DNA of 64,000 bases from Candidatus Eiseniibacteriota bacterium (GTDB lineage: Bacteria > Orphanbacterota > Orphanbacteria > Orphanbacterales > Orphanbacteraceae). The stretch lies in assembly GCA_029262235.1 (NCBI GenBank), contig JAJCZU010000004.1, positions 771,330 through 835,329 on the forward strand. The letters run 5' to 3'. The notes below the pieces were generated by a model, which did no database searches, had not been told where the DNA came from, and worked only from the letters and a program-made list of their open reading frames with translations. Shown here piece by piece: positions 10,137 to 59,800 of the stretch. Both the position numbers and the translations under genes were made by a program. The stretch's first letter is position 1. Each line of letters opens with the position of its first letter.

Positions 10137-11084
10137 TTGAATCGATTCCTGTCCTACGGCATCAAGCTTCTGGTCACCGGTGGCCTTCTCTGGTGGGTGT
10201 ACCGCCAGCTGCCGATCGGAGAAGTGTGGCAGGCGCTGCGAGCCGCGGATCCCGGACTGCTGATCCTCGGCCTCGTCGCCACCACACTGCTTCGACTCAC
10301 CGCCGCCTACCAGACACGGCTCCTGACCGCGCAGCAGGGCATGACGATTTCGACGTGGCGGATCTGGGCCGTGAATTACGAAGCGGCGTTCTACGGGCTT
10401 TTCGTGCCGGGATACGTCGCGAGTTCGGCCGTGCGCTGGTATCGCATTGCGCAACCGGACGGCATGCGGATGCAGACCGCGGTCGTGATCGTGACGTACC
10501 GGATTCTGGACACCTTCGTTCTCGTTCTGACGGGGTTTCTGCTCTACGGACTCGATTCGAACGCGGAAAAGCCCCGGATCGTCGGTCCCGCCATGCTGAT
10601 CGTGCTCGTCCTGCTGGGCGCGATGTATCTTCTGGTGTTTAATCGTCCGTTCGCGCGATTCATCTTCAGAATGCTCGACCGGATTGCGCTGCCGGATTTT
10701 GTCGCGAGCCGCCTGCACAAGCTGAAAAGCGCCGCGGGTCTCATGCACGACCTGCCGCCGAAAACACACGCGCTCGTATTATTCTATTCATTCGTGAAAC
10801 ATTTCTGCACGGTGATTTCAGGGGTGCTGCTCGTCGCCTCGCTCGACACGAATCTGTCGATCATGACGAGCGCCTGGGTGCGTCCAGCCGTGTTCGTACT
10901 TACGATGCTGCCGATTTCGTTTTCGGGGCTCGGCGTGCGGGAGGGGGCGCTCTTCTATCTGCTCGACTTCTACCGCACAGAGCCGGCCGCGATCGCCGCG
11001 ATTTCTATCCTGTTCTTTCTGCCGCTTCTGCTCTCCGGGTTTGTCGGCGCCATTCTGGAATCCCGACGCTTCTTTCGCAGGTAA
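10137..11084 (+). CDS. Flippase-like / lysylphosphatidylglycerol-synthase-TM-domain (UPF0104) membrane protein
   Basis: 315 aa polytopic membrane protein with 8 or more TM segments; the N-terminal 'LLVTGGLLWWVYRQL' start is typical of the family. Confidence 0.6.
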   Translation: MNRFLSYGIKLLVTGGLLWWVYRQLPIGEVWQALRAADPGLLILGLVATTLLRLTAAYQTRLLTAQQGMTISTWRIWAVNYEAAFYGLFVPGYVASSAVRWYRIAQPDGMRMQTAVVIVTYRILDTFVLVLTGFLLYGLDSNAEKPRIVGPAMLIVLVLLGAMYLLVFNRPFARFIFRMLDRIALPDFVASRLHKLKSAAGLMHDLPPKTHALVLFYSFVKHFCTVISGVLLVASLDTNLSIMTSAWVRPAVFVLTMLPISFSGLGVREGALFYLLDFYRTEPAAIAAISILFFLPLLLSGFVGAILESRRFFRR

Positions 11085-11103
11085 ACGAATCAGCCGGGCA
11101 AGC

Positions 11104-13929
11104 TCACGGATTGATCTTTGCGCGCGCCGGTCCGAATTGCGGGTCGAGGGAAAGCGCGTTCTCGTAGGCGCGCATGGCGTCGCCCCTTCGGCCCGCGGCC
11201 TCGTGAACGAGGCCGGCGCGGTAGTGGGTCAACGGATTGCGCCGGTCAATACTGAGGGACCGCTCGAGCGCCTGCAGTGCGGGGCCGTGCGCACCCGCCC
11301 GCAGCGATGCAAGACCGTTTTCGCTCCAGGCAGTGGCTGCCGCGTGATCGATCGAGCGCGCGTGCCAGGCTTCGGCCCAGTTGCGGTGTTTCATGGCAGC
11401 GCCGGAGCCCACCACGACGAGAAGCGCGAGAGCGACCGGCGCGAGGGACGCGGACTGGAAACGGGGCGCGTGAGGCACCGCCCCCTCGAGCGCGGCGTCC
11501 TTGTATGCTGCCGGCTCATGGCGCGGAGGGCGGGGGGGCCTTGCGGGGAGCACGAATCGCAGGATCAGCAGAATGAGGCCCGCGCCGCTCATCATCAGTC
11601 CCTTCCGCATCCACGCGGGACGGTATTGCGCCTCGTACGTGCCCGGCACGGGAGCGGGGAATGCGAGGAAGAGTCCGTCGGCCTGGAGCGTCGTCAGAAC
11701 TTCGCCCGCGGGATCCGTAACGCGCCATCCCGGGTCGTACGTTTCCGCGAGCACGACGAGTCCGCCTCGGTCGACATCGACAAGTCGCGAGTTCGGCCCC
11801 GTGATCGTAAGCGGAAGCGGCCGGTTTGCGGCGCCCGGGAACGGCGGGCCCTGGAACGATGGTGTGCCGGGGAGCACCGGGGCGCGGTCGACGAACGTAA
11901 TGGCGCGCGGGTCGTGATCCTTCGCGTGGACCGCTCGCAGGAGGTTTGCGCGGTGCTGTTCCGCCCGCCATCGCAGCGAGAGCCGGGCGCGCGGCATCGG
12001 GTTCCTGTTTCGTGTGAGGAACAGCCCTCCCGGAAGGGGGGCGCCGGTCCGCGACGAAAGCGCGGCATCGACGCTCAGAAGGTCGAGCATACGTTCGCTG
12101 TACGCGGGATTCGGAACGCCGGACGTGCCTTCGGGAATGCCGACCCATTCGCGCCATGCGGTGGGAACGAGTGGGGTGAAGCCTTCGGCTGATTCCGCGC
12201 CGTAGAGGAGCGGAACGTTCGGAGTGAGTGACCAGCCGGCCGTACGATACTCGCTCCCGCCCGGCAGTTCCGCTTGCGGCTCTCCGCGCGCAGGCTCGCG
12301 CACGCTCCATCCCGGGGTGAAAGGGTCGACCCGGTCTCGCGCCGGGCGAAGCGTCCGGATTTCGTCGATGTCCCGTCGCGCAAACCGGGGGGCGTGATCG
12401 AGAGTTTCGAGAGCGTGCACTGCCGGCGGCGGCTCTGTTAGAAGCGCGGGATCGATCACGGGATTCCAGCCCCGCCCCCAGAGAAGCAGGTCGAGTGACA
12501 GGATCGCGAGGGGCGCGTAACGGAGCGGAACCGCGTAGCGAATGTAGGTGAAGAGTGCGAGAATGCCGATGCCCGCGCAGCCGAACACGATCGCGTGAAG
12601 CCGGTCGGCGCTCTGTGCATTCTGCAGTCGCGCGAGGCGCGCCGCCCAGTCGTTCGCGAGCGCGGATCCTTCGCCCGCAGCCGCGATCAGCGCTTCGCCC
12701 GGCGTCCCCCAGTTCCCCTGCGCCGCGATTCCGAGGAGCACGAGTGCGACCGTGCCGGCGCCCGCAACGGCAAGCGCCCGGCGCGAACGCCGGCGTACCG
12801 TCGCGTCGATCCCGCACCCGGCGAGGAGCGCCATGCAGAGCAGGAACGGCATCGCGAACCGGCCCGGAATGCGCGTGGCGTCCAGCAGCGGGAACGCGCC
12901 GAGGGCGTTCCACGCGAATCCGTAGCGGCCGATCATGACTGCGAACGAGAGCGCGGCCCCCGTGGCGAGCGCGAGGGGGACACGCCCGCGCAGAAAGAAC
13001 AGCCCGACGCAGACGCACGGGATCGCGCTTGCGCCGAAGTAGAAACAGGTTTCTGCATAAAGCGTCCAGTCGAGGCCCCCGTACCACGTGTCGAGCCGGG
13101 GTGTCCCCTGCAGATTCGGCAGCGCCGCGTGGAGCAGGTTCCACGGCGGGAGGGAGCCGAGGGATCGGAATGCTTCGCTCATGCCGGCGCTCCGCTCCGT
13201 TTCGCGAAGGAGCGAGAAAGTGGCCACTGTCTGGAACGCGCCCGCGAGAAGGCCCGCGCCGGTCGAATAGAGCACCCGCAGGTATCCGCGCATGCCGTAT
13301 CCGCCGCCCACTCTCGCAACCACGAGTGTGAACAGCATCGCGATCGCGGCGAGAATGGTGCCGTTCGGGTGCGGCGCGAGCGAAAGAAGCGTCCAGCCGA
13401 TCGCGAGAACGATCGCATGTGCCTTGTGCCCCTGCAGGGCGCCGAGCGTGCCCCATATGATCCAGGGCATCCAGGCTGCGCCGGCGAGAAGATTGAAGTC
13501 CGAAATATGTGTGACGAGAAAACCGGAGAACGCGTACATCGTGCCCGCGAACAGCGCGGACGTGTGACGTGTGTCCAGAAGCCGAGCCATCTGATACGCG
13601 CCGAAACCGGCCCATGCGAAGTGAAGAATGATGTCCCATGCGAATGCGAGCGTCGGCGGTAGAAGCGTGAACAGTGCGAAGGTGGTCGGGTAGAGCGGCG
13701 CGGTCTGCGATTCAGCGAACAGGGGATACCCGGCGAACATCCCTGACGTCCAGAGCGCGAAGTGGCCGCTCTTCAGCTGTTCGAACCACCACGCCCTCGT
13801 GGCGAACGAATGCATCCACGCTTCGTGATGGAAGAACGCTCCCCCGAACGCCGCCTCGCGAAAGAATACGATCGGAGCGATCAGAAAAAAGAGCGTGGCT
13901 TCGAACTGACGGCGGTTGATGCCGAACAT
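11104..13929 (-). CDS. YfhO-like polytopic membrane protein with C-terminal TPR repeats (putative glycan or protein glycosyl-transfer / polymerase-type membrane protein)
   Basis: 941 aa. About 14 TM segments at the N-terminus, then a large soluble domain, then C-terminal TPR repeats (RAGLVHEAAGRRGDAMRAYENALSLDPQF). Lies 9 nt downstream of the thioredoxin gene on the same strand. Confidence 0.6.
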   Translation of the reverse strand: MFGINRRQFEATLFFLIAPIVFFREAAFGGAFFHHEAWMHSFATRAWWFEQLKSGHFALWTSGMFAGYPLFAESQTAPLYPTTFALFTLLPPTLAFAWDIILHFAWAGFGAYQMARLLDTRHTSALFAGTMYAFSGFLVTHISDFNLLAGAAWMPWIIWGTLGALQGHKAHAIVLAIGWTLLSLAPHPNGTILAAIAMLFTLVVARVGGGYGMRGYLRVLYSTGAGLLAGAFQTVATFSLLRETERSAGMSEAFRSLGSLPPWNLLHAALPNLQGTPRLDTWYGGLDWTLYAETCFYFGASAIPCVCVGLFFLRGRVPLALATGAALSFAVMIGRYGFAWNALGAFPLLDATRIPGRFAMPFLLCMALLAGCGIDATVRRRSRRALAVAGAGTVALVLLGIAAQGNWGTPGEALIAAAGEGSALANDWAARLARLQNAQSADRLHAIVFGCAGIGILALFTYIRYAVPLRYAPLAILSLDLLLWGRGWNPVIDPALLTEPPPAVHALETLDHAPRFARRDIDEIRTLRPARDRVDPFTPGWSVREPARGEPQAELPGGSEYRTAGWSLTPNVPLLYGAESAEGFTPLVPTAWREWVGIPEGTSGVPNPAYSERMLDLLSVDAALSSRTGAPLPGGLFLTRNRNPMPRARLSLRWRAEQHRANLLRAVHAKDHDPRAITFVDRAPVLPGTPSFQGPPFPGAANRPLPLTITGPNSRLVDVDRGGLVVLAETYDPGWRVTDPAGEVLTTLQADGLFLAFPAPVPGTYEAQYRPAWMRKGLMMSGAGLILLILRFVLPARPPRPPRHEPAAYKDAALEGAVPHAPRFQSASLAPVALALLVVVGSGAAMKHRNWAEAWHARSIDHAAATAWSENGLASLRAGAHGPALQALERSLSIDRRNPLTHYRAGLVHEAAGRRGDAMRAYENALSLDPQFGPARAKINP

Positions 13930-45586: not shown

Positions 45587-45709
45587 GGCGGTGAGACATT
45601 CCCCCGCAGTCCCGAGCCCCATTGGAGGGCCGGGGGTTCGGCGATCAGGCTTCATGTCTCATGTGAGCAGGCCCGACAGGGCGAGGGCGAGGAGGAATGT
45701 CTCACCGCC
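45587..45709. repeat. About 120-bp MITE-like repeat, copy 2, inverted relative to copy 1
   Basis: Perfect 16-bp TIRs GGCGGTGAGACATTCC and GGAATGTCTCACCGCC. The internal sequence is the reverse complement of copy-1 blocks. The stop codon of the VWA gene (45702-45704) lies inside the right TIR. Confidence 0.55.
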
Positions 45710-46799
45710 CCCGCCTCTTGCGATTCCGCAAGAAATCTACCAGCACAAAATCACCCACCTGATCCGCCGAGCTGAAGAACGCCCGCCCGCGGTTCTTCTC
45801 CGTGAGTTCCGCGATGAACTGCTCGAGGTACGGATCCTGCGCGACCATGAACGTCGTGATCACGATCCCCTTGCGCCTGCAGACGACGGCTTCGTCGAGC
45901 GTGCGGTTCACGATCATCTCGTCGAGTCCGAAGGTGTTGCGATACGTTCCCTGGCCCGGTATCTGAATCACGGTCGGCTTGCCGTCGGTGATCATGAAGA
46001 TCTGCTTGTTGGGATTCTTGCGCCGCTCGAGAAGTTTGCGCGCGAGCTGCAGTCCGGCTTTCGTGTTCGTGTGGTACGGGCCGACGGCCGTGAACGGCAG
46101 GTCCTTGATGGGCACGGGGCGCGCGTCGTCGCCGAAGAGCACGATGTCGAGCGTGTCTTTGCGGTACCGCGTCATGATGAGTTCGGTGAGCGCGAGCGCA
46201 ACCTGCTTGGCGGGCGTGAAGCGATCTTCGCCGTAGAGAATCATGCTGTGGGAGATGTCGAGCAGCAGCACGGTGGCGCAGGAGGTCGCGAACTCGGAAT
46301 CGTGCACGACGAGATCACGCTCTTCGAGCGGAACGTCGGTGTTCCCTTCGCGCCGTACGGCGTTCCACATCGACGCGTTGAAGTCGATCGCTTCGATGTC
46401 GTCGCCGAACTGAAAGTCGCGCCGCTCGGGAAGCGCCTCGTTCGTGTTGCCGCCGCCGTACGGCGTCATGTGCGCGCCCTGCCCGCCCGACTGCAGATTC
46501 TGGAAGATGCGTTCGAGCGATGATTGGCGAAGCCCCTGCACGCCCTTGTCGGTGAGCTGCATTTTACCCAGTTCGGTGCTCACGATTTCGCGATCGTTCA
46601 GCTGCTTCTGGAACGCGTCGAGGTCGACGCTTTCGTCGAGGTAGCCGCGCTGCTGCAGCTGGCGCATCATTTCCATGGCGCGCTCGGGATCGCCGTTCGA
46701 CTTGAGCAGCAGAAAATTGAACAGGTCGAGCAGCTGCTTGAAATGGCTGAGCTTCTTTAAGAGCTCGGGATCCCAGGAGCCGTAACGAAAGCCGAACAT
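45702..46799 (-). CDS. VWA (von Willebrand factor A) domain protein
   Basis: 'VLLLDISHSM' is a MIDAS DxSxS motif and 'IFMITDGKP' is vWA-like; positioned downstream of the AAA+ gene. Confidence 0.65.
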   Translation of the reverse strand: MFGFRYGSWDPELLKKLSHFKQLLDLFNFLLLKSNGDPERAMEMMRQLQQRGYLDESVDLDAFQKQLNDREIVSTELGKMQLTDKGVQGLRQSSLERIFQNLQSGGQGAHMTPYGGGNTNEALPERRDFQFGDDIEAIDFNASMWNAVRREGNTDVPLEERDLVVHDSEFATSCATVLLLDISHSMILYGEDRFTPAKQVALALTELIMTRYRKDTLDIVLFGDDARPVPIKDLPFTAVGPYHTNTKAGLQLARKLLERRKNPNKQIFMITDGKPTVIQIPGQGTYRNTFGLDEMIVNRTLDEAVVCRRKGIVITTFMVAQDPYLEQFIAELTEKNRGRAFFSSADQVGDFVLVDFLRNRKRRGR

Positions 46800-46809
46800 A
46801 ACGCGCCCC

Positions 46810-48270
46810 CTAAAGGTCGCGCATCATGCGGCTCAGCATGTCGCCGTAGCGCACGGCGCCGCCGATTCCCTCGCGCGAGAGAATCGAATGCTGGTGCATC
46901 GCCTCGAGCACGAACTCCTGCGCGGCAAGGCGCACTTCGGGCGTTTCGGGCTCGAGATAGTTGTCGACGAGTTCGTTCAGGCCGTCGATGCTCGAGAACT
47001 GCGCGGCGAGTTCGCCAGAAAACGGCAGATCCGAGACGTCGATCGTGTTCCCGGCGTTGAACCACGCCGCCACGCGCCCGTAGAGCGGCTCGGATGCGTC
47101 CGGGTGGGCCTTGTCTTCGTGCACGGACGGAAAGTACTCCTGAAAGATCGATTTCACGGCCTTGCCAATCAGGCGTTCCGCCACGATGTTCGGCCCTTCC
47201 TGCTCCCCTTCGTACACGAGTTCGAGCTTGCCCGTGATCGCGGGCAGCACGGCATAGAGATCGCTGAGCCGCGCGGTCGGGCTCGGATCGCCGTTCGCGA
47301 CCATGCGCCGTTCCACGCTGCTCGTCAAAAGCTCCAGTGCCGCGATCGCGAGTCGCGCGCTGACGCCCGAAGTCTGGTCGACGTGTTCGCTGAGGCGCGC
47401 CTGCACCGCGATCTCTTCAATCGTTTCGCGCAGAAAATCGGGCACGGTGACGGCCACGCTGCGATCGGTCGACGCTTCCTGGTCCGTGATCATCATCGCG
47501 TCCTCGAGGCTCTCGGGATAATGCGTGATGATCTGGCTCGCGATGCGGTCCTTGAGCGGCGTTATGATGTTCCCGCGGTTCGTGTAGTCCTCGGGATTCG
47601 CCGTGAACAGAAAGATCATGTCGACCGCGAGGCGAATCGGAAAGCCGCGTATCTGCAGATCACGTTCTTCGAGAAGATTCAAAAGGCCGACCTGAATGCG
47701 CGGCTGAAGATCGGGGATCTCGTTCAGACAGAAGAGGCCGCGGTTCGTGCGCGGCACGATGCCGTAATGAATCACGCGTTCGTCAGAGAGATCGAGCCGT
47801 TCGCGCGACGCCCGGATCGGGTCGATGTCGCCGATAAGATCAGCCATGCTGACGTCGGGTGTCGCGAGCTTTTCCTGATAGCGCGCGGAGCGGTGCAGCC
47901 AGGCGACGGGCGTGTCGTCGCCCGCTTCTTTCACGAGCGTGCGCGCGAAGTGCGAGGCGGGGCGAAGCGGATCATCGTTCAGGGGGGCGCCGTCGACAAC
48001 GGGCGTCCATTCGTCGAGGAACGCCGAGATCGCGCGACAGACTCTCGTCTTCGCCTGGCCGCGCAGGCCGAGCAGAAGGAGGTCGTGGCGCGAAAGAAGC
48101 GCGTTCACGATCGCGGGAATCACCGAGTCGTCGTAACCGACGATGCCGGGAAAAAGCGTGCGCTTTTCGCGGATCGCGTCGAGCAGGTTCGCGCGCACTT
48201 CGTCGCGGATGCTCCGGGATTCGTAGCCGCTCGCCTTGAGCGCGCCGAGGGTGCCTGGCTTTTGCTGCAT
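46810..48270 (-). CDS. MoxR/ChlI-like AAA+ ATPase
   Basis: Walker A 'GLRGQAKT' is the MoxR-style GxxGxAKT. The sensor / arginine-finger region 'IFLFTANPEDY...TPLKDRI' is present. The Walker B position reads 'LFCLNEI', with N in place of the usual D. The start (48270 vs 48354) is uncertain. Confidence 0.6.
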   Translation of the reverse strand: MQQKPGTLGALKASGYESRSIRDEVRANLLDAIREKRTLFPGIVGYDDSVIPAIVNALLSRHDLLLLGLRGQAKTRVCRAISAFLDEWTPVVDGAPLNDDPLRPASHFARTLVKEAGDDTPVAWLHRSARYQEKLATPDVSMADLIGDIDPIRASRERLDLSDERVIHYGIVPRTNRGLFCLNEIPDLQPRIQVGLLNLLEERDLQIRGFPIRLAVDMIFLFTANPEDYTNRGNIITPLKDRIASQIITHYPESLEDAMMITDQEASTDRSVAVTVPDFLRETIEEIAVQARLSEHVDQTSGVSARLAIAALELLTSSVERRMVANGDPSPTARLSDLYAVLPAITGKLELVYEGEQEGPNIVAERLIGKAVKSIFQEYFPSVHEDKAHPDASEPLYGRVAAWFNAGNTIDVSDLPFSGELAAQFSSIDGLNELVDNYLEPETPEVRLAAQEFVLEAMHQHSILSREGIGGAVRYGDMLSRMMRDL

Positions 48271-48630
48271 GAGCTTCCTTTTGTCGGGAACAGGGGGGAG
48301 GGGCTCGATCCATTCGAGTTCGTATATAATAGTAAGGGCTGCCCGGGGGATCAAGGCGGCGCCGGTGATTGGACCGAAGCGGGGAACGATTTGACGTGGC
48401 TCCCGATTCTCCGTATCCTGAATCTATAACGATTCTGTGAGCAACGCTCCGACCGACGATCGCCTAACGTGATGAACCATGGCGGCTTCGGCGACAGGGT
48501 CCCTCTGGAAACGGGCGGGCCTCCCGTGTTTGGAAAGGAGCGATGCGGAACCGGCTGATCAACGCGATCGGTCCGGCTGTTTCGCGTTCGCCTTTTCCTG
48601 GCTCACACCCCTCGGGGAAAAGGCGATGCC

Positions 48631-49926
48631 ATGCTTTCCTTCGAAGATGCCATCAAAAGTACTTTGCAAGCCGTGCAGGCTGTCGAAACCGAAGCGATGC
48701 CGCTTCTGGGCGCCCAGGGACGCGTGCTGCGCGCGCCGGTGACCGCCGATCGCGATCTGCCGCCGTTCGACCGGAGCGAGCGTGACGGTTTTGCCGTGCG
48801 CGCCGAAGACTGCGCGAATGGAAAAGCGACCCTGCCCGTTCACGCGCGCACGATTTACGCGGGCGACGAGCCGGGCGCCGCGATCGAACCGGGGACGGCC
48901 ATCCGCATCATGACGGGGGCCCCGCTTCCCGAAGGCGCGAACGTGGCGGTTCCGGTCGAGAAGACGATCGAGACGGGCGCGGGTGAGGCGGGCGAGGTGG
49001 CCGGCGCGGATGCCGGCGTTCGCCCGCGGGTGGTCATCGACTATCCCGCGATCAAGCCCGGGCTTCATGTGCATCCGCGCGGCTCCGATGCGCGCGCCGG
49101 CGCACTGCTGCTCGATACGGGCACCGTGCTCGGCCCGTCCGAAATCGCCGCGGCGGCCTCGGTGGGCGCCGGTACCGTGACAGTTTCCCGCCGCATTCGC
49201 GTCTCCGCGCTTTCTACAGGCGACGAACTCGTAGCGATCGAGGACGCGCCCGGCCCCGCGGCCATTCGTGACTGCAACGGGCCCGTGATTCTCGCGATGG
49301 CGTCCGCGCATCCGTGGATTCACGCGATCGGGTCGTATCGCGCGCCCGACGATCGTGGCGTGTTGCGCGAAACCATCGCGCGCGCGCTCGAGAGCGCCGA
49401 CGTGCTCGTACTTTCCGGCGGCGTGAGCATGGGAACGAAGGACTTCGTGCCCGGCGTGCTGGCGGAGCTCGGCGTAGAACAGATCTTTCACAAGACCGCC
49501 ATTCGCCCCGGGAAGCCGCTCTGGCTCGGCGCCGCGCCGAACGGGGCGCACGTTTTCGGCCTCCCGGGAAATCCGGTCGCCGTGCAGGTCACGTTTCGCG
49601 AAATCGTAATGCCGGCGCTTCGCAAACTGGCGGGCATGGCGCGCACGAGCGGCCCCGAATATGTGCTCCCTCTGGCGATACCCGTTTCGAAATCGATTCC
49701 GTTCCGTCAGTTCGTCCCCGCCCGCGTCGTGCCGGGCAATCCGGCGGGCGAACCGCACAAATCGCCGCTTTGCTCGTGCTCGCACGCGCTGCCGCTCGAC
49801 CATCGCGGGTCGGGCGACTTCGTTTCCGCCGCGCGCGCCGAGGGCGTGATCGTGCTGCCCGAAGGGCCGCACGAGTTCAGGGCGGGCGACCCGGTCATGT
49901 TTCACCCCTGGGGACCATCATGCTAG
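48631..49926 (+). CDS. moeA: Molybdopterin molybdenumtransferase
   Basis: MoeA-family similarity throughout ('GPVILAMASA', 'LSGGVSMGTKDF', 'GLPGNPVA'). Confidence 0.8.
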   Translation: MLSFEDAIKSTLQAVQAVETEAMPLLGAQGRVLRAPVTADRDLPPFDRSERDGFAVRAEDCANGKATLPVHARTIYAGDEPGAAIEPGTAIRIMTGAPLPEGANVAVPVEKTIETGAGEAGEVAGADAGVRPRVVIDYPAIKPGLHVHPRGSDARAGALLLDTGTVLGPSEIAAAASVGAGTVTVSRRIRVSALSTGDELVAIEDAPGPAAIRDCNGPVILAMASAHPWIHAIGSYRAPDDRGVLRETIARALESADVLVLSGGVSMGTKDFVPGVLAELGVEQIFHKTAIRPGKPLWLGAAPNGAHVFGLPGNPVAVQVTFREIVMPALRKLAGMARTSGPEYVLPLAIPVSKSIPFRQFVPARVVPGNPAGEPHKSPLCSCSHALPLDHRGSGDFVSAARAEGVIVLPEGPHEFRAGDPVMFHPWGPSC

Positions 49927-50968: not shown

Positions 50969-51445
50969 TTGGAAGAGAAACGACTGTCGCACATCGGGGA
51001 TGATGAACGGGCGCGCATGGTCGACGTGTCGCCGAAGTCCGAAACCGTGCGTATGGCGCGGGCCGAAGCGATCGTGCGCGTCGGCGCGGAAGTCGCCGCG
51101 CTCCTTCGCTCGACGGGTTCCGTGGCGAAGGGGAACGTCATCGAGACGGCGCGTATCGCCGGGATCATGGCGGCGAAGAGAACGGCCGAACTCGTGCCGA
51201 TGTGCCATCCGCTGATGCTCGATCATATTGCGATCGACGGCAATCTCGACGGCGACCGCCTGACCATGCAGTGCGAAGTGCGATGCACCGGACGCACCGG
51301 CGTCGAGATGGAAGCGATGCTCGGCGCGTCCGTCGCCGCGCTCACGGTGTACGACATGTGCAAGTCGGCGTCGAAGGGAATCGAAATCGAAGGCGTTCGT
51401 CTTCTCAATAAAGAAGGCGGCAAGAGCGGGAAGTGGGAACGATGA
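50969..51445 (+). CDS. moaC: Cyclic pyranopterin monophosphate synthase
   Basis: 'LSHIGDDERARMVDVSPK', 'IAGIMAAKRT..LVPMCHPL' and 'TGRTGVEMEAMLGASVAALTVYDMCK' match MoaC throughout. Probable TTG start at 50969; no in-frame ATG is upstream of the conserved N-terminus. Confidence 0.75.
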   Translation: MEEKRLSHIGDDERARMVDVSPKSETVRMARAEAIVRVGAEVAALLRSTGSVAKGNVIETARIAGIMAAKRTAELVPMCHPLMLDHIAIDGNLDGDRLTMQCEVRCTGRTGVEMEAMLGASVAALTVYDMCKSASKGIEIEGVRLLNKEGGKSGKWER

Positions 51446-51891
51446 GTAACGCACGCGGAACGGTGCTCGCCGTCCAGATTTCGCCCGGCGGCATTCCGAA
51501 GATGCCGGTCGAAGAGGCGGTCGTCGGTCGCATGGGAATCGAGGGCGACGGACGCGATCACGCGAAGCACTGGAAAGAGGAGCGCGCGATCTCGATTCAG
51601 GATCTCGAGCTCATCGAACAGATCCGGGGCGACGGTTACGATGTGGCCCCCGGCGTTATGGGCGAGAATCTAACGGTGAAAGACCTGCACGTACAGACGC
51701 TGATCCCCGGCACCAAGCTTCACTTTTCGGGCGGGCTCGTGCTCGAACTGACCGGTCCGCGCAAACCGTGTTTCGTGCTCGACACGATCGACGAGAAGCT
51801 GAAAGATGACGTGATCAATCGAATCGGATACATGGCACGCGTGGTGCAGGAACATACGATCCGTCCTGGCGAAACGGTGTGGGCGGAGTGA
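51442..51891 (+). CDS. MOSC-domain protein
   Basis: 150 aa; the C-terminal 'PCFVLDTI..RIGYMARVVQEHTIRPGETV' is MOSC-like. ATGA overlap with moaC. Confidence 0.6.
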   Translation: MSNARGTVLAVQISPGGIPKMPVEEAVVGRMGIEGDGRDHAKHWKEERAISIQDLELIEQIRGDGYDVAPGVMGENLTVKDLHVQTLIPGTKLHFSGGLVLELTGPRKPCFVLDTIDEKLKDDVINRIGYMARVVQEHTIRPGETVWAE

Positions 51892-51953: not shown

Positions 51954-52532
51954 ATGCCCGTTCCCGCTTACCCGCATACGGCGGCGCTTCTCGTCGGCGG
52001 AAAGAGCACGCGCATGGGGCAGGCGAAAGTCGGCCTCCGGTTCGAAGACGGCAGCACGCTCGGCGAACGGATCGTCGCCACACTGCAGGCGATGACGCGT
52101 GAAGTCGTTCTCGTCGGCACATGCGAAGATCTTCCCGCGCCGCTTCGTGCACTTCCCGCGATTCCCGATCTGCGCACCGGCGAAGGTCCGCTCGCAGGAT
52201 GGGAGGCGCTACTCGCTTCGGGCCGCGACAGCGAATACCTGGTGCTCTCGTGCGACCAGCCCGTTCTCGATGCCGCACCGCTGGTTCCGCTTCTCGCCGT
52301 ACCCTCCGCGCCCGCATTTCTTCTCGTGAACGAACCGATGCCCGCGCGCCTCAGCGCCGCGCTTCTGCCGCAGGTGAGCGCCGCGCTCGACAAGGGCAAC
52401 CGCTCGCTGCGCGATCTCATGGTCACGATTCCCTCTGCGCACTTCGCCCAGTTCCCGTCCGGCGCACGGCCCATTCCGAATCTGAACACGCCCGCAGACT
52501 GGGCGGCGTTTCAGAAAACGTTGGCGCGATGA
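51954..52532 (+). CDS. mobA: Molybdenum cofactor guanylyltransferase
   Basis: 'AALLVGGKSTRMGQAK' is the MobA N-terminal nucleotide-binding motif. ATG at 51954. Confidence 0.7.
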   Translation: MPVPAYPHTAALLVGGKSTRMGQAKVGLRFEDGSTLGERIVATLQAMTREVVLVGTCEDLPAPLRALPAIPDLRTGEGPLAGWEALLASGRDSEYLVLSCDQPVLDAAPLVPLLAVPSAPAFLLVNEPMPARLSAALLPQVSAALDKGNRSLRDLMVTIPSAHFAQFPSGARPIPNLNTPADWAAFQKTLAR

Positions 52533-53962
52533 CGAACGCGAACGACCGCCAGAAGCTCAGTGATCTCTTTCGTGAGCACACCGGCGCCGCCCCGGAAGAC
52601 GTAACCTCGCTCCGGGGCGACGGGTCGGACCGCCGGCTCTATCGGCTGGCCGGCCCCGTTTCGATGATCGGCGTCGCGCACGAGAACAGGCGCGAAAACG
52701 ACTCGTTCGTTGCGCTCAGCCGCCATTTCCGCGACCGGTCGCTCCCCGTGCCCGCGATTTACGTTTATGACGCGGACGCGCACATCTATCTCGAAGAGGA
52801 CCTCGGCGACACCACACTTGCAGACTGGCTCGCCCGCGCGAAGGGCGCCGACGACGAGCGCCGGAAACTGATCGACAGCGTTGTCGCCTGGCTTCCGCGC
52901 TTTCAGATCGAAGGGTCGGAAGGGCTCACGGACGACGTCTTCTCGTCGCACGCTCGCTTTCTGCCCAAAACGGCCGAAGCGGACCTCGACTACTTTCGCG
53001 ACTCGTTTCTCGGGCTGCTCTATGACGGCGAATGGGACGCGGCGAAGCTCGATCGCGACTGCCGGGAACTCGTCCGGCTTCTTGCCGACTCGGACTCCGA
53101 TTTCTTCCTGTATCGCGACTTCCAGGCCCGCAACATGATGGTGCGGAACGGCGCGCTCTCGTTCATCGACTATCAGTCGGGGCGCCGCGGTCCGCTCGCG
53201 TACGATCTCGCCTCGTTCCTCTATTCTTCGACGACGCATTTTTCGACGCGCGAGCGAAACGAGCGTATCGATCTCTATGTGCGCGAAGCGAGCCACCTCA
53301 CGAAATTCGACGAAACCCGTTTTCGCGAAAGCTTTCCCCTGGTTGCCCTCATCCGCAATCTGCAGACGCTCGGCGCGTACGGGAACCTCGGAGTGCGCAA
53401 AGGGAAGGCGCTTTTCCTGCGGAACGTGCCCGCGAAGGTGAACACGATCGTCGGACTCTTCCGTGAGGCCGGTCTTCGTGATACGTTTCCGGCGATCTAC
53501 GACATTCTGGCGCGGATCGGGCGCTCGCCGCGCAAGGCGCTGAAGGGGATGCACATGACTGACGAGATGCTCGTCGAAATCCACAGTTTCTCGTATCACA
53601 AATCCGGCATCCCGCGCGACGAGCGGGGGCACGGAGGCGGGTTCGTGTTCGACTGCCGCTTTCTGCCGAACCCGGGGCGTGAGGAAGGCTACGACACGCT
53701 CGACGGACGCGATACGGAAGTGCGCGTCTATCTCGAGAAGCGAAGCGAGGTCGAGGCGTTCTGGGTGCATGTGCGCAGCATCGTCGAAGAAGCGGTGCGC
53801 GCGTACGAGAAGCGCGGCTTCCAGTCGCTCTCGATCGCGTTCGGCTGCACGGGCGGGCAGCATCGCAGCGTCTACTTCGCCGAGCGCCTGTTCGCCCATC
53901 TCTCGCGCGAGGGAAAGATGTGTCGCCTGCGCCATGACGATCTGCAGGAGGACGCGGATTGA
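52529..53962 (+). CDS. Fusion protein: N-terminal aminoglycoside-phosphotransferase-like sugar kinase (AmgK-like anomeric MurNAc/GlcNAc kinase) plus a C-terminal RapZ (YvcJ/YhbJ) C-terminal-domain homolog
   Basis: APH-like kinase motifs ('LYRDFQARNMMV', 'FIDYQSG'). The C-terminal 'FVFDCRFLPNPGRE...SIAFGCTGGQHRSVYFAERL' matches the RapZ C-terminal domain (GCTGGxHRSV). ATGA overlap with mobA; the upstream 136 aa of the track ORF are junk. Confidence 0.6.
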   Translation: MTNANDRQKLSDLFREHTGAAPEDVTSLRGDGSDRRLYRLAGPVSMIGVAHENRRENDSFVALSRHFRDRSLPVPAIYVYDADAHIYLEEDLGDTTLADWLARAKGADDERRKLIDSVVAWLPRFQIEGSEGLTDDVFSSHARFLPKTAEADLDYFRDSFLGLLYDGEWDAAKLDRDCRELVRLLADSDSDFFLYRDFQARNMMVRNGALSFIDYQSGRRGPLAYDLASFLYSSTTHFSTRERNERIDLYVREASHLTKFDETRFRESFPLVALIRNLQTLGAYGNLGVRKGKALFLRNVPAKVNTIVGLFREAGLRDTFPAIYDILARIGRSPRKALKGMHMTDEMLVEIHSFSYHKSGIPRDERGHGGGFVFDCRFLPNPGREEGYDTLDGRDTEVRVYLEKRSEVEAFWVHVRSIVEEAVRAYEKRGFQSLSIAFGCTGGQHRSVYFAERLFAHLSREGKMCRLRHDDLQEDAD

Positions 53963-54747
53963 CCGGCATGGTCCTCGCTGCCGGCCTCGGAAAGCGCCTG
54001 CGCCCCGTTACCATCCGTACGCCGAAAGCGCTGATTCCGGTGCGCGGGAAGCCGTTACTCCAGTGGGCGCTCGACAAGCTCGGGCGCGTCGGTGCCGACC
54101 CCATCTACGTCAACGTGCATCATCATGCGCCGTTCGTGCGGACGTTTCTTTCCCAGATTGAAACGGCGGAAGAGATTCGCGTGGTCGAAGAGGATCCGGT
54201 TCTCGAAACGGGGGGCGGCATTCGTAATGTCGCGCGAATGATGGAAACGGATGCGGCGGGCGGAAAGACTGCAGGTGGCTCCCGCGCCGGGAGCGACACC
54301 TCGGGCACGCGCGACTCCCTGCTGATTCACAACGCCGACGTCCTCTCGTCGCTCCCGCTCGATCGTTTTCAGGATGCGTTCGAATCCGGAAAGTACGACG
54401 CGTATCTTGCCGTGCAGACGCGCAAGACGAGCCGGCCGATCGCGATCGATTCCGAGGGATTGCTTTCCGGGCGTTTCGGTGAAGAGCCGGTCCGGCCGGC
54501 CGATTCTCTGACGCCCGTCGGCTACAGCGGGATTCTGGCGATCACGCACGCCACGGCGCTGGCGCTCCCGGGCGAAGGATCGTTTCCCTTGATCGACTCT
54601 CTGCTCGCACTCATTCAGGAGGGCGCGCGCGTAGGAACGTATCCGATGGACGGCGCGTACTGGACCGACGTCGGCACGATGAAACGCTGGACGCAGGTCG
54701 AGCACGATCTCGCGAACGGCGTCATCGCACCGGAAGCGCTTGCGTGA
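53959..54747 (+). CDS. Sugar-1-phosphate nucleotidyltransferase (MurU-like)
   Basis: 'MVLAAGLGKRLRP' is the G-x-G-x-R-L NTP-transferase motif. The track start is a TTG at 53959 overlapping the kinase stop; the ATG at 53968 is an alternative. Confidence 0.65.
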   Translation: MTGMVLAAGLGKRLRPVTIRTPKALIPVRGKPLLQWALDKLGRVGADPIYVNVHHHAPFVRTFLSQIETAEEIRVVEEDPVLETGGGIRNVARMMETDAAGGKTAGGSRAGSDTSGTRDSLLIHNADVLSSLPLDRFQDAFESGKYDAYLAVQTRKTSRPIAIDSEGLLSGRFGEEPVRPADSLTPVGYSGILAITHATALALPGEGSFPLIDSLLALIQEGARVGTYPMDGAYWTDVGTMKRWTQVEHDLANGVIAPEALA

Positions 54748-54807: not shown

Positions 54808-55635
54808 CTACTTCTTCGCGATCAGATACGCAATCCACGCCACCGCGTCGTCGCCCTTCTTCACCGGGCGGAAGACGCCGTTCCCGTCGCCGTCCTTGTC
54901 GGTGCCTTCCCAGAAGACGGTCACTTCGCTGTAGCCCGTTTCGTAAAGCAGGTCTTTCACTTCGACGAGATTCCAGAGCCGCCAGTCGTACGTGAACGCT
55001 TTCTTCATCTTGCTTCCGTCGGGGAACTTGAAGTGGATGTAGCAGCGATAGTCGCCGGTGACCGGGTCGTAGTAGTCCTGATCCCAGACGTACGTGAAAT
55101 CGTCGTATTCCCACTCTTCGAGCTGCGGGATCATGGCTTCGGGGCCACCGTAAATGTCGAGGTAGAGAAACCCGTCGTCGTTCAACGTTTCGTGAACGGC
55201 GCGGAAGTATTCTGCGAGCGTCTCTCTCTTCTTGAACGCGAAGTACGAGAAATTGTTGGCGCAGATGATGTCGAACTTTTCGTTACCCGGATGCAGCACG
55301 TCCCCTTCCATCAGCTTGACGCGCAGGGCGGCTTCGCCGAGCGGGGGGAGATGCTGCTGACGTCCCCATGCGAGCGGAACGGGGTCGAGGTCGATGCCGA
55401 GCGCGCGATTCTCGGGCGACGTTCGTACGAAACTGCACGCGACCGCGCCGGTGCCGCAGAAGTCCTCACGCAGAGTGCGCGGTTCCTTGTTGAACATCTT
55501 GTTGTACGTTCTGCGGACGAACTTCACTTCCGAGTCGGGATCCTGCACGGACTTGATATAGAGGTCGTACCGATCCGCATTTTTCGAAGCTTTGATCTTT
55601 GAAGTCTTGTGCTTCGCAGCCTTGATCTTTCCCAT
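54808..55635 (-). CDS. Class I SAM-dependent methyltransferase
   Basis: 'EDFCGTGAVA' (motif I) and 'DIICANN' (motif II). ATG at 55635; the upstream part of the track ORF is unlikely to be coding. Confidence 0.6.
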   Translation of the reverse strand: MGKIKAAKHKTSKIKASKNADRYDLYIKSVQDPDSEVKFVRRTYNKMFNKEPRTLREDFCGTGAVACSFVRTSPENRALGIDLDPVPLAWGRQQHLPPLGEAALRVKLMEGDVLHPGNEKFDIICANNFSYFAFKKRETLAEYFRAVHETLNDDGFLYLDIYGGPEAMIPQLEEWEYDDFTYVWDQDYYDPVTGDYRCYIHFKFPDGSKMKKAFTYDWRLWNLVEVKDLLYETGYSEVTVFWEGTDKDGDGNGVFRPVKKGDDAVAWIAYLIAKK

Positions 55636-55940
55636 CACGAGTCCCCTCACGAATCGAAGGTTGCATGGCCCGGCGGGCGCCGGCTGGTGAATGAACGGAG
55701 AATAGGACAGGACCGTTTTCGGGGGCAACAGGGAAAAGTCTTGGTGGGAGCAGAAAAACGGATACAATGTCGAGAGAAACTACCCGGCAGGAACGCAGCG
55801 ATCCATCCGTAAAGTTCCGGGGGCGGGGTTCGGTTTTCGCGTATAGGACGAATGACCCCCTCGGGCGACTATAAATGTGAACCGGAAGGGCAACGGCCCT
55901 GCAGATGGGCAAGGGCCCTACATTCGCGAATGGAGGAGAC

Positions 55941-57689: not shown

Positions 57690-58297
57690 ATTACGGAAGA
57701 TTTGGAAAGTTCCTGGTGCTTTGTGCGCTCCCCTTCGTACTCGTCGGCTTTTTTGCCCTGGTGGGTTTTCCGCAGCAGAGCTATGCGCAGTTTGCGGATG
57801 TCGTAACAGTCAAGGCGGCGCTGAAAGAGGCGCTTCAGGCCAACGGAGCGAAGTCACTCGTCAAGCGTGAGGTCGTGCCGACAGCCGAGCAGGCCGCGGA
57901 GATGGCGAAACTGTACGGAATCGAAGCCGGCAAGAAATACACGATGTACACAGGGCTCACGGCTGAGAAGAAGCCGGTGGGCACGGTCGTGATCGTCGAT
58001 GTGGCGGGCTATGAAGGGCCGCTTCAGATGATCATCTGCATCGAGCCCGATTCTGCCTCCGTTTACGACCTCGGCTTCACGATGTTCGCGGAAGAACGTG
58101 GCAAGCCCGCGAAGGAAGCCGGGTATCTCAAGCAGTATATCGGCGCCGACGTTTCCTGGAAGTACGCGCTCGGAAAGGACGTCGACGGCATTACGGGGGC
58201 GACCGGGACTTCGACGGCGGTTGCCGCCGCGGTCAAGATCGGCACCAGCGTTTATGACTATTTCGTGACGCGCGGAAATGGAGTCGTCGAGCCATGA
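57686..58297 (+). CDS. FMN-binding domain protein (NqrC/RnfG/NosR-type covalent flavinylation motif)
   Basis: Signal/TM N-terminus; 'DGITGATGTS' matches D-x-x-(S/T)-G-A-T flavinylation sites. ATGA overlap with the preceding gene. Confidence 0.65.
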   Translation: MNYGRFGKFLVLCALPFVLVGFFALVGFPQQSYAQFADVVTVKAALKEALQANGAKSLVKREVVPTAEQAAEMAKLYGIEAGKKYTMYTGLTAEKKPVGTVVIVDVAGYEGPLQMIICIEPDSASVYDLGFTMFAEERGKPAKEAGYLKQYIGADVSWKYALGKDVDGITGATGTSTAVAAAVKIGTSVYDYFVTRGNGVVEP

Positions 58298-58707
58298 TCA
58301 AGACGATGAGGAACCCGGTTAGAGGGCCTGCCACGCTGATCGCGTGTCTGCTGCTCTTCACGGGGTGCGGCACGTTTCATCCCCTCGAGAGGGGTGGGGA
58401 GGCCGACGGTCTGCCGACCGCGCCCGGGCTGAGCGAAGACGTGAGTTTTGCGAGCAACGTGAAGCCGATTCTTTCGCAGTGCGCGGTCTGTCATGGGAGC
58501 GGCGCGGGCGGATGGACCTACGGCGGCGGCGCGACCGCCTACGTCGAAGCGCGCACCGTTGTCGATCCCGGCGATCCTGCCGCGAGCCTGTTGCTCGCGA
58601 AGGCGTCGGGAGCAGTGAGCCACGGAGGCGGCGCGCCGCTTCCTTCAACCGGAACTAAATACGCGACCGTTCTTACGTGGATCGAAGACGGAGCACTCGA
58701 TAATTAG
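58294..58707 (+). CDS. Small monoheme c-type cytochrome lipoprotein
   Basis: Lipoprotein-like signal peptide (LLFTGC) and a single CxxCH (CAVCHG). ATGA overlap with the preceding gene. Confidence 0.55.
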   Translation: MIKTMRNPVRGPATLIACLLLFTGCGTFHPLERGGEADGLPTAPGLSEDVSFASNVKPILSQCAVCHGSGAGGWTYGGGATAYVEARTVVDPGDPAASLLLAKASGAVSHGGGAPLPSTGTKYATVLTWIEDGALDN

Positions 58708-58726
58708 TCGCAAAGGGAGGCGAGCG

Positions 58727-59800
58727 ATGTTTGTTTCAAAGAGAAGTCTGACCCTGGCGCTGACTCTGGGAATCTTCGCCATGGTGATGACGGCGTGTGA
58801 GAGAACCAAGATTACGCGGATCGTCGAGGAAGCTCCGGTGGGCGGCGAGTCGAACTGCTTCGAGTGTCACAGCGACGCGGCGACGTTCATCGTGGCTGCG
58901 GAACAGCAGTGGATGAACTCGGTGCACGCGAGCAGCCTGAATATCGATCGGGGAGCCAGCGCGTCGTGTGCGGGCTGTCACATCAGCGAAGGTTTCGTGC
59001 AGCGCGCAAGCGGCCTCGAAGTGACCGGCGAAGATAATGCGACGCCGATTCACTGCTTTACGTGTCACGCGCCGCATACGGAAGGCGATTTTTCGCTCCG
59101 GTGGACAGAGCCCGTGACGCTGCAGAACGGTGTAACGGCCGATATCGGGGCCGGCAACCTGTGCGCACAGTGTCACCAGGCACGCCGCGACGTGAACTCG
59201 TATGTCGGCACGATCGGCACCGAGACCGTCTCGATCACAAGCACGCACTGGGGGCCGCATCACGGCAACCAGGCCGACATGTTCATCGGTTCGAACGGCT
59301 ACGAATATGCTGGCTACACGTATCGTGGAGCGTCGCATCTATCCGCGGCGACCAACGGCTGCGTGAACTGCCACTTCGACGCCACGAGCAACAGCGTGGT
59401 CGGCGGGCACTCCTTTAACATGGCCTACACGCTGCGTGACGAAGGCGGAGCCGGCAGTGAAATCCTGAACACGGCTGCCTGTGAAGCGTGTCACTCGGAT
59501 GTGGACGACTTCGACATCAACGACATGCAGACGAACGTGAACGCGCTGATCGCGGAACTCGAAGAGCTGCTCGAAGACGCGGGTCTCTGGACGAACGGTC
59601 ATCCGAACGCGGGCGTCACGACTTCGGTCGATTCGGCGGGCGCGGTCTGGAATCTGCTGATGGCGGAAGAAGACAGAAGCCACGGCGTTCACAATGCGAA
59701 ATACACGGTCGATCTGCTGCAGTCTTCGATCGACTTCATGAAGGGCGAGCTGAAAGGCTCGGACAAGAACGCGGTCTACCAGCGTCACGCGATGCGGTAG
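58727..59800 (+). CDS. Hexaheme c-type cytochrome lipoprotein
   Basis: Lipoprotein-like signal peptide (LGIFAMVMTAC). Six CxxCH motifs: CFECH, CAGCH, CFTCH, CAQCH, CVNCH and CEACH. Confidence 0.7.
   Translation: MFVSKRSLTLALTLGIFAMVMTACERTKITRIVEEAPVGGESNCFECHSDAATFIVAAEQQWMNSVHASSLNIDRGASASCAGCHISEGFVQRASGLEVTGEDNATPIHCFTCHAPHTEGDFSLRWTEPVTLQNGVTADIGAGNLCAQCHQARRDVNSYVGTIGTETVSITSTHWGPHHGNQADMFIGSNGYEYAGYTYRGASHLSAATNGCVNCHFDATSNSVVGGHSFNMAYTLRDEGGAGSEILNTAACEACHSDVDDFDINDMQTNVNALIAELEELLEDAGLWTNGHPNAGVTTSVDSAGAVWNLLMAEEDRSHGVHNAKYTVDLLQSSIDFMKGELKGSDKNAVYQRHAMR

Follow-up and report, generated by a model that had tools for sequence, protein, structure and literature searches.

The 64,000-nucleotide stretch of the genome of a Candidatus Eiseniibacteriota bacterium analysed here (positions 771,330 to 835,329 of contig JAJCZU010000004.1, assembly GCA_029262235.1; referred to below as the window) carries, behind a string of molybdenum cofactor (Moco) genes, a gene for a 477-residue kinase that appears AmgK-like and has RapZ's C-terminal domain attached to it, followed by a gene for a MurU-like nucleotidyltransferase (NTase) (Table 1). 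In domain-wise profile searches against Pfam, the first protein matches both the APH family (PF01636, residues 44-250, E 1.5e-10) and the RapZ C-terminal domain (PF22740, residues 348-472, E 5.6e-34), and a phmmer search against PDB sequences aligns the latter region with the C-terminal domain (CTD) of Escherichia coli RapZ (5o5s, E 8e-18), so that profile and structure both identify the C-terminal extension as RapZ_C. In the NCBIfam RapZ model, only positions 156-277 of 278 align to the fusion, and a pattern search over the whole protein found no Walker A motif (G-x4-G-K-[ST]); the P-loop N-terminal domain of RapZ is therefore missing. The original prediction, made from the letters of the DNA alone, had described just such a kinase with a C-terminal RapZ extension and no P-loop domain, and the signature by which it had recognized the extension is confirmed as FVFDCRFLPNP and GCTGGQHRSV. 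The N-terminus of the fusion aligns with the N-termini of its homologues, and an AlphaFold2 model of the protein has a predicted local distance difference test (pLDDT) score of 91.3.

Table 1. Coordinates of the fusion gene, the NTase gene and the adjoining genes in the window, with related proteins and loci from the homologue searches.
Feature	Position (nt) or identifier	Strand	Remarks
Fusion gene, AmgK-like APH-fold kinase and RapZ C-terminal domain, 477 aa	52529..53962	+	Start codon overlaps the stop codon of mobA (ATGA)
Kinase domain, aa 1-337, APH / eukaryotic-like kinase fold	52529..53539	+	
Kinase catalytic loop Y-R-D197-F-Q-A-R-N202 and metal-binding I-D214-Y-Q	53111..53170	+	D197, N202 and D214 invariant (n=95)
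RapZ C-terminal domain, aa 348-472	53570..53944	+	
Phosphate-pocket loop C440-T-G-G-Q-H445-R446-S447 (C-x5-R-S)	53846..53869	+	Equivalent to E. coli RapZ C247-S254; pattern match
MurU-like sugar-1-phosphate nucleotidyltransferase, 259-262 aa	53959..54747	+	Start at TTG 53959 or ATG 53968
moeA	48631-49926	+	Upstream Moco gene
moaA	49920-50894	+	Upstream Moco gene
moaC	about 50969-51445	+	Upstream Moco gene
MOSC gene, stand-alone	51442-51891	+	Between moaC and mobA
mobA	51879 or 51954 to 52532	+	Upstream Moco gene
Methyltransferase gene	54808-55767	opposite strand	Next after the NTase gene
Triple-fusion proteins	P0277, P0285, P0310, P0312, P0318, P0381, P0388, P0400, P0401		Nine 50%-identity clusters
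murA/murQ loci	L017:5376-7746; likewise L033, L035, L043, L064	- (L017)	

The AmgK/MurU pair forms an anabolic shortcut of peptidoglycan recycling, known from Pseudomonas putida (PP_0405/PP_0406) and also from Caulobacter, Legionella and Tannerella forsythia. In fold, the kinase domain of the fusion belongs with the APH / eukaryotic-like kinases, and it has a (H/Y)RDxxxxN loop and, downstream of this, a metal-binding aspartate. Within the loop F-L-Y-R-D197-F-Q-S/A-R-N202 and the segment I-D214-Y-Q-G-G-R, residues D197, N202 and D214 are invariant across 95 homologues, and the same motif layout is found in the PDB entry 3csv (HRDFHAQN ... IDFQD). Since these catalytic motifs are intact and invariant, the kinase domain should be catalytically active. 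The AmgK models are the sole named kinase matches of the fusion in NCBIfam, and the aligned part of 3csv, a partial sequence, likewise has an AmgK model as its best NCBIfam match (NF045698, 252 bits); the kinase thus appears closest to AmgK-like proteins. Searches of the PDB for a substrate-bound AmgK structure found none.

The product of the following gene, which begins with MVLAAGLGKRLRP, matches the NTP_transferase family of Pfam (PF00483, E 5e-16) and has the N-terminal LAAGxGxRxxP nucleotide-binding signature. Its closest relatives in the PDB are the MurU proteins of P. putida (4y7t, E 8.7e-14) and P. aeruginosa (8hhd). The NTase encoded beside the fusion in a Tannerella metagenome-assembled genome (MAG) is likewise nearest to MurU in both NCBIfam and the PDB, and more strongly so than that of the window. 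The window NTase also has an insertion of about 25 residues rich in Gly, Ser, Thr and Ala (TDAAGGKTAGGSRAGSDTSGTRD; nt 54240-54320, about residues 95-120), which neither MurU nor the Tannerella MAG orthologue has.

The fusion is widespread over many bacterial phyla and occurs in hundreds of GTDB species. A word-indexed search retrieved about 8000 proteins, of which the top 120 are nearly all 470-500 residues long and contain both PF01636 and PF22740, the closest homologue being a protein of a Gemmatimonadota MAG with 91% identity. An exact look-up of the window protein in public assemblies gave no entry. An exhaustive phmmer search of 1.84 billion representatives clustered at 50% identity gave 585 clusters at E <= 1e-30 and 3128 at E <= 1e-10, and among GTDB contigs, with one genome per species, at least 598 pattern matches were confirmed. 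As thousands of full-length homologues have the same architecture, the fusion is no product of chance or of faulty assembly, and neither is it a peculiarity of the window. Loci were compared for the best 80 of the at least 598 GTDB loci and for two further loci with called genes (L081 and L082). Going by record titles, the best 80 come mainly from Acidobacteriota (37), Bacteroidota (27), Elusimicrobiota (5), Gemmatimonadota (2) and Calditrichota (2), with one each from Methylomirabilota, Bdellovibrionales, Opitutaceae, Lentisphaeria and Eremiobacterota, so that the survey of lineages proposed in the original prediction finds homologous fusions in at least eight phyla. The carriers in Bacteroidota include Phocaeicola plebeius DSM 17135, Bacteroides sp. 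519, Parabacteroides sp. PF5-6 and the Tannerella MAG. Automatic annotation names these proteins "phosphotransferase", "RapZ C-terminal domain-containing protein" or "RNase adapter RapZ" (e.g. P0020, P0042, P0063, P0183 and P0242); the last name, given to proteins with neither the P-loop domain nor the RNA-binding residues of RapZ, is likely an over-annotation.

Conservation of gene order ties the fusion to its NTase. In tblastn searches with the window proteins, 72 of the 80 loci, across at least eight phyla, have the NTase gene immediately downstream of the fusion and on the same strand. Furthermore, nine of the ten long matches (710-816 residues) are triple fusions of APH, RapZ_C and NTP_transferase domains with RapZ_C in the central position, and these constitute Rosetta-stone evidence that all three domains act jointly. 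Another protein, P0380 (718 residues), has a DNA_pol_A_exo1 3′-5′ exonuclease domain ahead of APH and RapZ_C and may be a merged gene call.

Beyond the NTase, an unsupervised clustering of open reading frames (ORFs) together with a Pfam census, covering the two nearest ORFs on each side in the 80 loci, found as conserved neighbours only murA, murQ and alaX, in five Acidobacteriota loci. There, the stretch just upstream of the fusion holds, in divergent orientation, murQ, for the N-acetylmuramic acid 6-phosphate (MurNAc-6P) etherase (385 bits), and murA (552 bits) (Table 1). In L082, the kinase-NTase pair is followed directly by the gene of an SLT lytic transglycosylase (10333-11367, + strand) and, 3 kb further on, by an Amidase_2 (AmpD/AmiD-like) gene (13198-13854, + strand).

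The C-terminal domain was compared with E. coli RapZ by transferring the residues of the latter via a phmmer alignment onto 95 fusions. First, the phosphate-binding pocket loop is evidently conserved: its C, T, G, G, H, R and S (C247...S254 in E. coli, C440...S447 in the window) are invariant in 95 of 95 fusions, and so are R184, D176, D182 and H276 (E. coli numbering), of which D182 is required for dimerisation of the RapZ CTD (PMC7073468). Next, a Gly-rich insertion of five residues relative to E. coli RapZ (GHGGG; consensus S-G-H-G-G-G) precedes the FVFD strand and is conserved in the fusions. In the window it spans residues 365-371 (nt 53621-53641), with G370 and G371 invariant, and falls in the 10-residue block of lowest pLDDT in the domain, the disordered C-terminal tail excepted. 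Finally, while the pocket loop is retained, the basic RNA-binding surface is lost. The residues K170, K194, R196, K203, R211 and K251, which follow the GlmZ backbone in RapZ (PMC9841335), are not conserved in the 95 fusions, and neither are K270 and the K281-R-K tail (PMC7073468); the tails are acidic or variable, that of the window protein ending in QEDAD, and the net charge of the domain is -6 in the window and 0 as the family median, against +4 for E. coli residues 159-284. An RNA-adaptor role is unlikely because the RNA-contact residues and the basic tail are gone and the domain is neutral to acidic.

From the residues that are kept, the ligand of the domain is likely a phosphate-containing small molecule. 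The E. coli RapZ-CTD by itself binds glucosamine 6-phosphate (GlcN6P) with a dissociation constant of 10 nM (PMC7073468), and the RapZ pocket also binds sulphate or malonate (PMC5737377). The YvcJ protein of Bacillus subtilis, which has no RNA-binding tail, binds UDP-N-acetylglucosamine (UDP-GlcNAc) and its gene immediately precedes that of GlmR, a protein now considered to be an accessory uridylyltransferase (PMC7525490, PMC13046274). The original prediction had taken the domain as a hint of metabolite sensing or channelling; metabolite binding is plausible in view of the invariant pocket loop and the lost RNA contacts, but the GlmZ binding of RapZ, which the prediction had also cited, should not be carried over to this protein.

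We lean towards a model in which the fusion and the NTase make up a self-contained salvage module of the AmgK/MurU type, where RapZ_C binds a phosphorylated amino sugar or a UDP-sugar and tunes the kinase. The APH-fold domain would use ATP to phosphorylate a cell-wall amino sugar at its anomeric hydroxyl, the likeliest substrates being N-acetylmuramic acid (MurNAc) and/or N-acetylglucosamine (GlcNAc), and the MurU-like NTase would convert the sugar-1-phosphate to a UDP-sugar for peptidoglycan synthesis. As ligand of the RapZ_C domain, an amino-sugar phosphate or a nucleotide sugar is most likely, the candidates being GlcN6P, GlcNAc-6P, MurNAc-6P, UDP-GlcNAc and UDP-MurNAc. The bound ligand could tune the kinase, and possibly its contact or coupling with the NTase, to the cell-wall precursor pool, and the domain may in addition dimerise the enzyme.

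Several observations weigh against such a model. The fusion scores 48.6 and 34.9 bits with the AmgK equivalog models NF045759 and NF045698, whose cut-offs are 550 and 500, and the Tannerella MAG fusion is also under the cut-offs with 63.3 and 32.1 bits. For the NTase, the best NCBIfam model is MurU NF045761, with 82.3 bits against a cut-off of 250; the MurU model NF045697 gives 71.8 bits against 370, and a mannose-1-phosphate guanylyltransferase model reaches 77.6 bits, near the MurU score. Since both enzymes stay below the equivalog cut-offs and the guanylyltransferase model is nearly equal, AmgK/MurU substrate specificity is not established. The pocket residues described for RapZ are H190, T248, G249, H252 and R253 (PMC5737377, PMC9841335), and at the position of H190 a Gly is found in 94 of the 95 fusions, followed by an Arg or Lys, likewise in 94; the ligand may therefore differ from GlcN6P. 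The predicted template modelling (pTM) score of 0.76 leaves the orientation of the C-domain relative to the kinase uncertain, and most of the 80 loci are without peptidoglycan genes nearby. The resemblance to AmgK/MurU, as originally predicted, thus stands as far as the top profile and structure matches go, which are AmgK-like proteins and MurU. By these best matches, the pair appears AmgK/MurU-like but not a pair of equivalogs, and MurNAc or GlcNAc as the sugar and a uridine nucleotide as the cosubstrate are what we infer from them.

The scores just described would also suit another substrate, such as a different hexosamine, mannose, a heptose or a choline substrate of the LicA/LicC type, with RapZ_C as a generic phosphate-binding or dimerisation appendage. 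This is unlikely: the best matches, in sequence as well as in structure, are AmgK-like proteins and MurU throughout, for both the window and the Tannerella MAG, the functional neighbours, where present, are murQ, murA, SLT and Amidase_2, and RapZ-family proteins are otherwise linked to amino-sugar metabolism.

Less likely again is a catalytic RapZ_C, whose C-x5-R-S loop would serve as a Cys-dependent phosphatase or phosphotransfer site acting on a sugar 6-phosphate, for example MurNAc-6P. In Pseudomonas, this step provides AmgK with free MurNAc and is carried out by the HAD-family MurNAc-6P phosphatase MupP, to which the fusion would be alike in this respect only; the MupP fold is unrelated to RapZ_C, and a phosphatase role of RapZ_C is putative. 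The fusion would then act in place of MupP as a one-polypeptide converter of 6-phosphate to 1-phosphate sugars. In the model the invariant loop appears to lie within a strand-loop-helix element, as in Cys-dependent phosphatases, which gives a weak indication in this direction; moreover, the C247S variant of E. coli RapZ lacks activity, a "chemically transformed" product of GlcN6P has been described in the pocket (PMC9841335), and a phosphatase activity of YvcJ is reported, as cited in PMC7525490. The supporting evidence is nevertheless weak, and a literature search for RapZ or YvcJ together with a CX5R or phosphotyrosine-phosphatase-like loop found no paper linking them. The broader conjecture that RapZ_C represents an ancient module, built around the Cys-x5-Arg phosphate loop, which acts on amino-sugar phosphates as a catalyst or in substrate handling, and which in the fusion either dephosphorylates MurNAc-6P or GlcNAc-6P or passes it to the kinase, seems a long shot to a similar degree. 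If it were true, it would point to an ancestral biochemical function that was later recruited in the enterobacterial RNA adaptor RapZ.

Two further explanations are very improbable. That the fusion is a RapZ-like RNA-binding adaptor presenting a small RNA to a ribonuclease, as the name "RNase adapter RapZ" of some members and the homology of their C-domain to the CTD with which E. coli RapZ binds RNA might suggest, is rejected on the residue conservation and charge described above; the P-loop N-domain needed for the interaction with RNase E in E. coli (PMC5737377) is absent, and YvcJ, which also has no basic tail, is not known to bind RNA (PMC7525490). The other explanation, a functional link to Moco biosynthesis, for instance through nucleotide-transfer chemistry shared with MobA or co-regulation with molybdoenzymes, could appeal to the tight packing of the same-strand genes, the overlap of mobA with the kinase gene and the sole promoter-like site ahead of moeA, yet it is largely refuted by lack of conservation. 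In the tblastn comparison no Moco gene adjoins the fusion in any of the 80 loci, save a moaA 2 kb upstream in L036; the kinase-NTase pairs of L081 and L082 have no Moco genes among their called genes, and the Pfam census of neighbours in the 80 loci contains no Moco families. The linkage, which had been noted as one with no obvious rationale, therefore carries no functional message, and that the module stands behind the Moco genes is an accident of operon packing in this lineage.

The reported coupling of these genes by ATGA overlaps also holds only in part. Such overlaps are present at two junctions, moaC/MOSC and mobA/kinase, while moeA and moaA overlap by 7 nt (ATGCTAG) and moaA and moaC are separated by a gap of about 75 nt. 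At the kinase/NTase junction, which reads gat-TGA-ccggc-ATG, a TTGA overlap arises only with the TTG start, which gives an NTase N-terminus equal in length to that of the homologues (Table 1). One sigma-70-like site was found ahead of moeA and none inside the gene string, a weak indication that the genes from moeA to the NTase might form one transcription unit.

Compared with the known AmgK/MurU systems, the salvage module proposed here agrees in having an APH-fold kinase gene followed by a small NTP_transferase gene, in its best profile and structure matches and in some peptidoglycan-related neighbours. It differs by scoring far under the equivalog cut-offs and by the additional RapZ_C domain of about 130 residues, which is absent from the Pseudomonas and alphaproteobacterial enzymes; AmgK measures about 324-360 residues by NCBIfam model length, and 3csv has 333, against 477 for the window fusion. 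Bacteroides spp. are reported to have homologues of AmgK/MurU (PMC8054146), and those of T. forsythia have been used functionally in E. coli (PMC10941766, PMC13041923). A homologue search from the Tannerella MAG fusion with a cluster look-up returned Parabacteroides sequences only, and the T. forsythia AmgK used experimentally may or may not be of the fused type.

With RapZ (YhbJ in E. coli, an RNase adaptor and GlcN6P sensor) and with YvcJ (UPF0042), the fusion shares the C-terminal PF22740 domain and the fold of the RapZ-CTD. In contrast to RapZ, it has an APH kinase in place of the P-loop N-domain, a Gly followed by Arg/Lys for H190 and the GHGGG insertion, and its C-domain is neutral to acidic with neither a basic RNA path nor a basic tail. 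A parallel in organisation is the YvcJ-GlmR system of Firmicutes, in which a gene for a kinase-like domain with RapZ_C likewise precedes a gene for a uridylyltransferase forming a UDP-amino sugar, and which is similarly linked to the supply of UDP-GlcNAc and peptidoglycan precursors and has no RNA-binding tail (PMC7525490, PMC13046274). The parallel does not extend to orthology, as the kinase and transferase folds are non-homologous: the kinase-like domain of YvcJ is a P-loop NTPase whereas that of the fusion has the APH fold, and GlmR belongs to the CofD/YvcK family whereas the window NTase belongs to the NTP_transferase family.

A literature search for RapZ together with AmgK found no paper, and the kinase-RapZ_C fusion is apparently undescribed in the literature searched, although databases already display the architecture. 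The window is one further member of a widespread and uncharacterised variant of AmgK/MurU, which suggests that many phyla have a fused and regulated form of the salvage route. This form is missed by the current equivalog models and is sometimes mislabelled as "RNase adapter RapZ". The AmgK/MurU route itself is a target for the potentiation of fosfomycin and the basis of metabolic labelling with MurNAc. RapZ and YvcJ are conserved across bacteria, but what they do biochemically beyond the GlmY/GlmZ circuit of enterobacteria is unsettled, and the C-domain pocket's ligand chemistry is debated. Here the same pocket domain is joined to a small-molecule kinase of another fold, in hundreds of species including abundant gut Bacteroidales, and the fusion thus offers a simple enzymatic system in which the role of the C-domain as a ligand binder, allosteric element or catalyst could be measured.

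Among the other genes nearby in the window, the MOSC gene (51442-51891) has as its top NCBIfam match a model of a MoaC/MOSC fusion (NF011069), to the MOSC part of which it aligns. Immediately upstream of the Moco string and divergent from it lies a pair of genes for an AAA_5 (MoxR-like) ATPase and a VWA-domain protein (45702-48354, - strand), and downstream, at 57701-59800 on the + strand, are genes for an FMN_bind-domain protein, a small lipoprotein-like ORF product and a multihaem cytochrome (with MtrC/MtrF-like and c7-like motifs), which are unrelated to the fusion.

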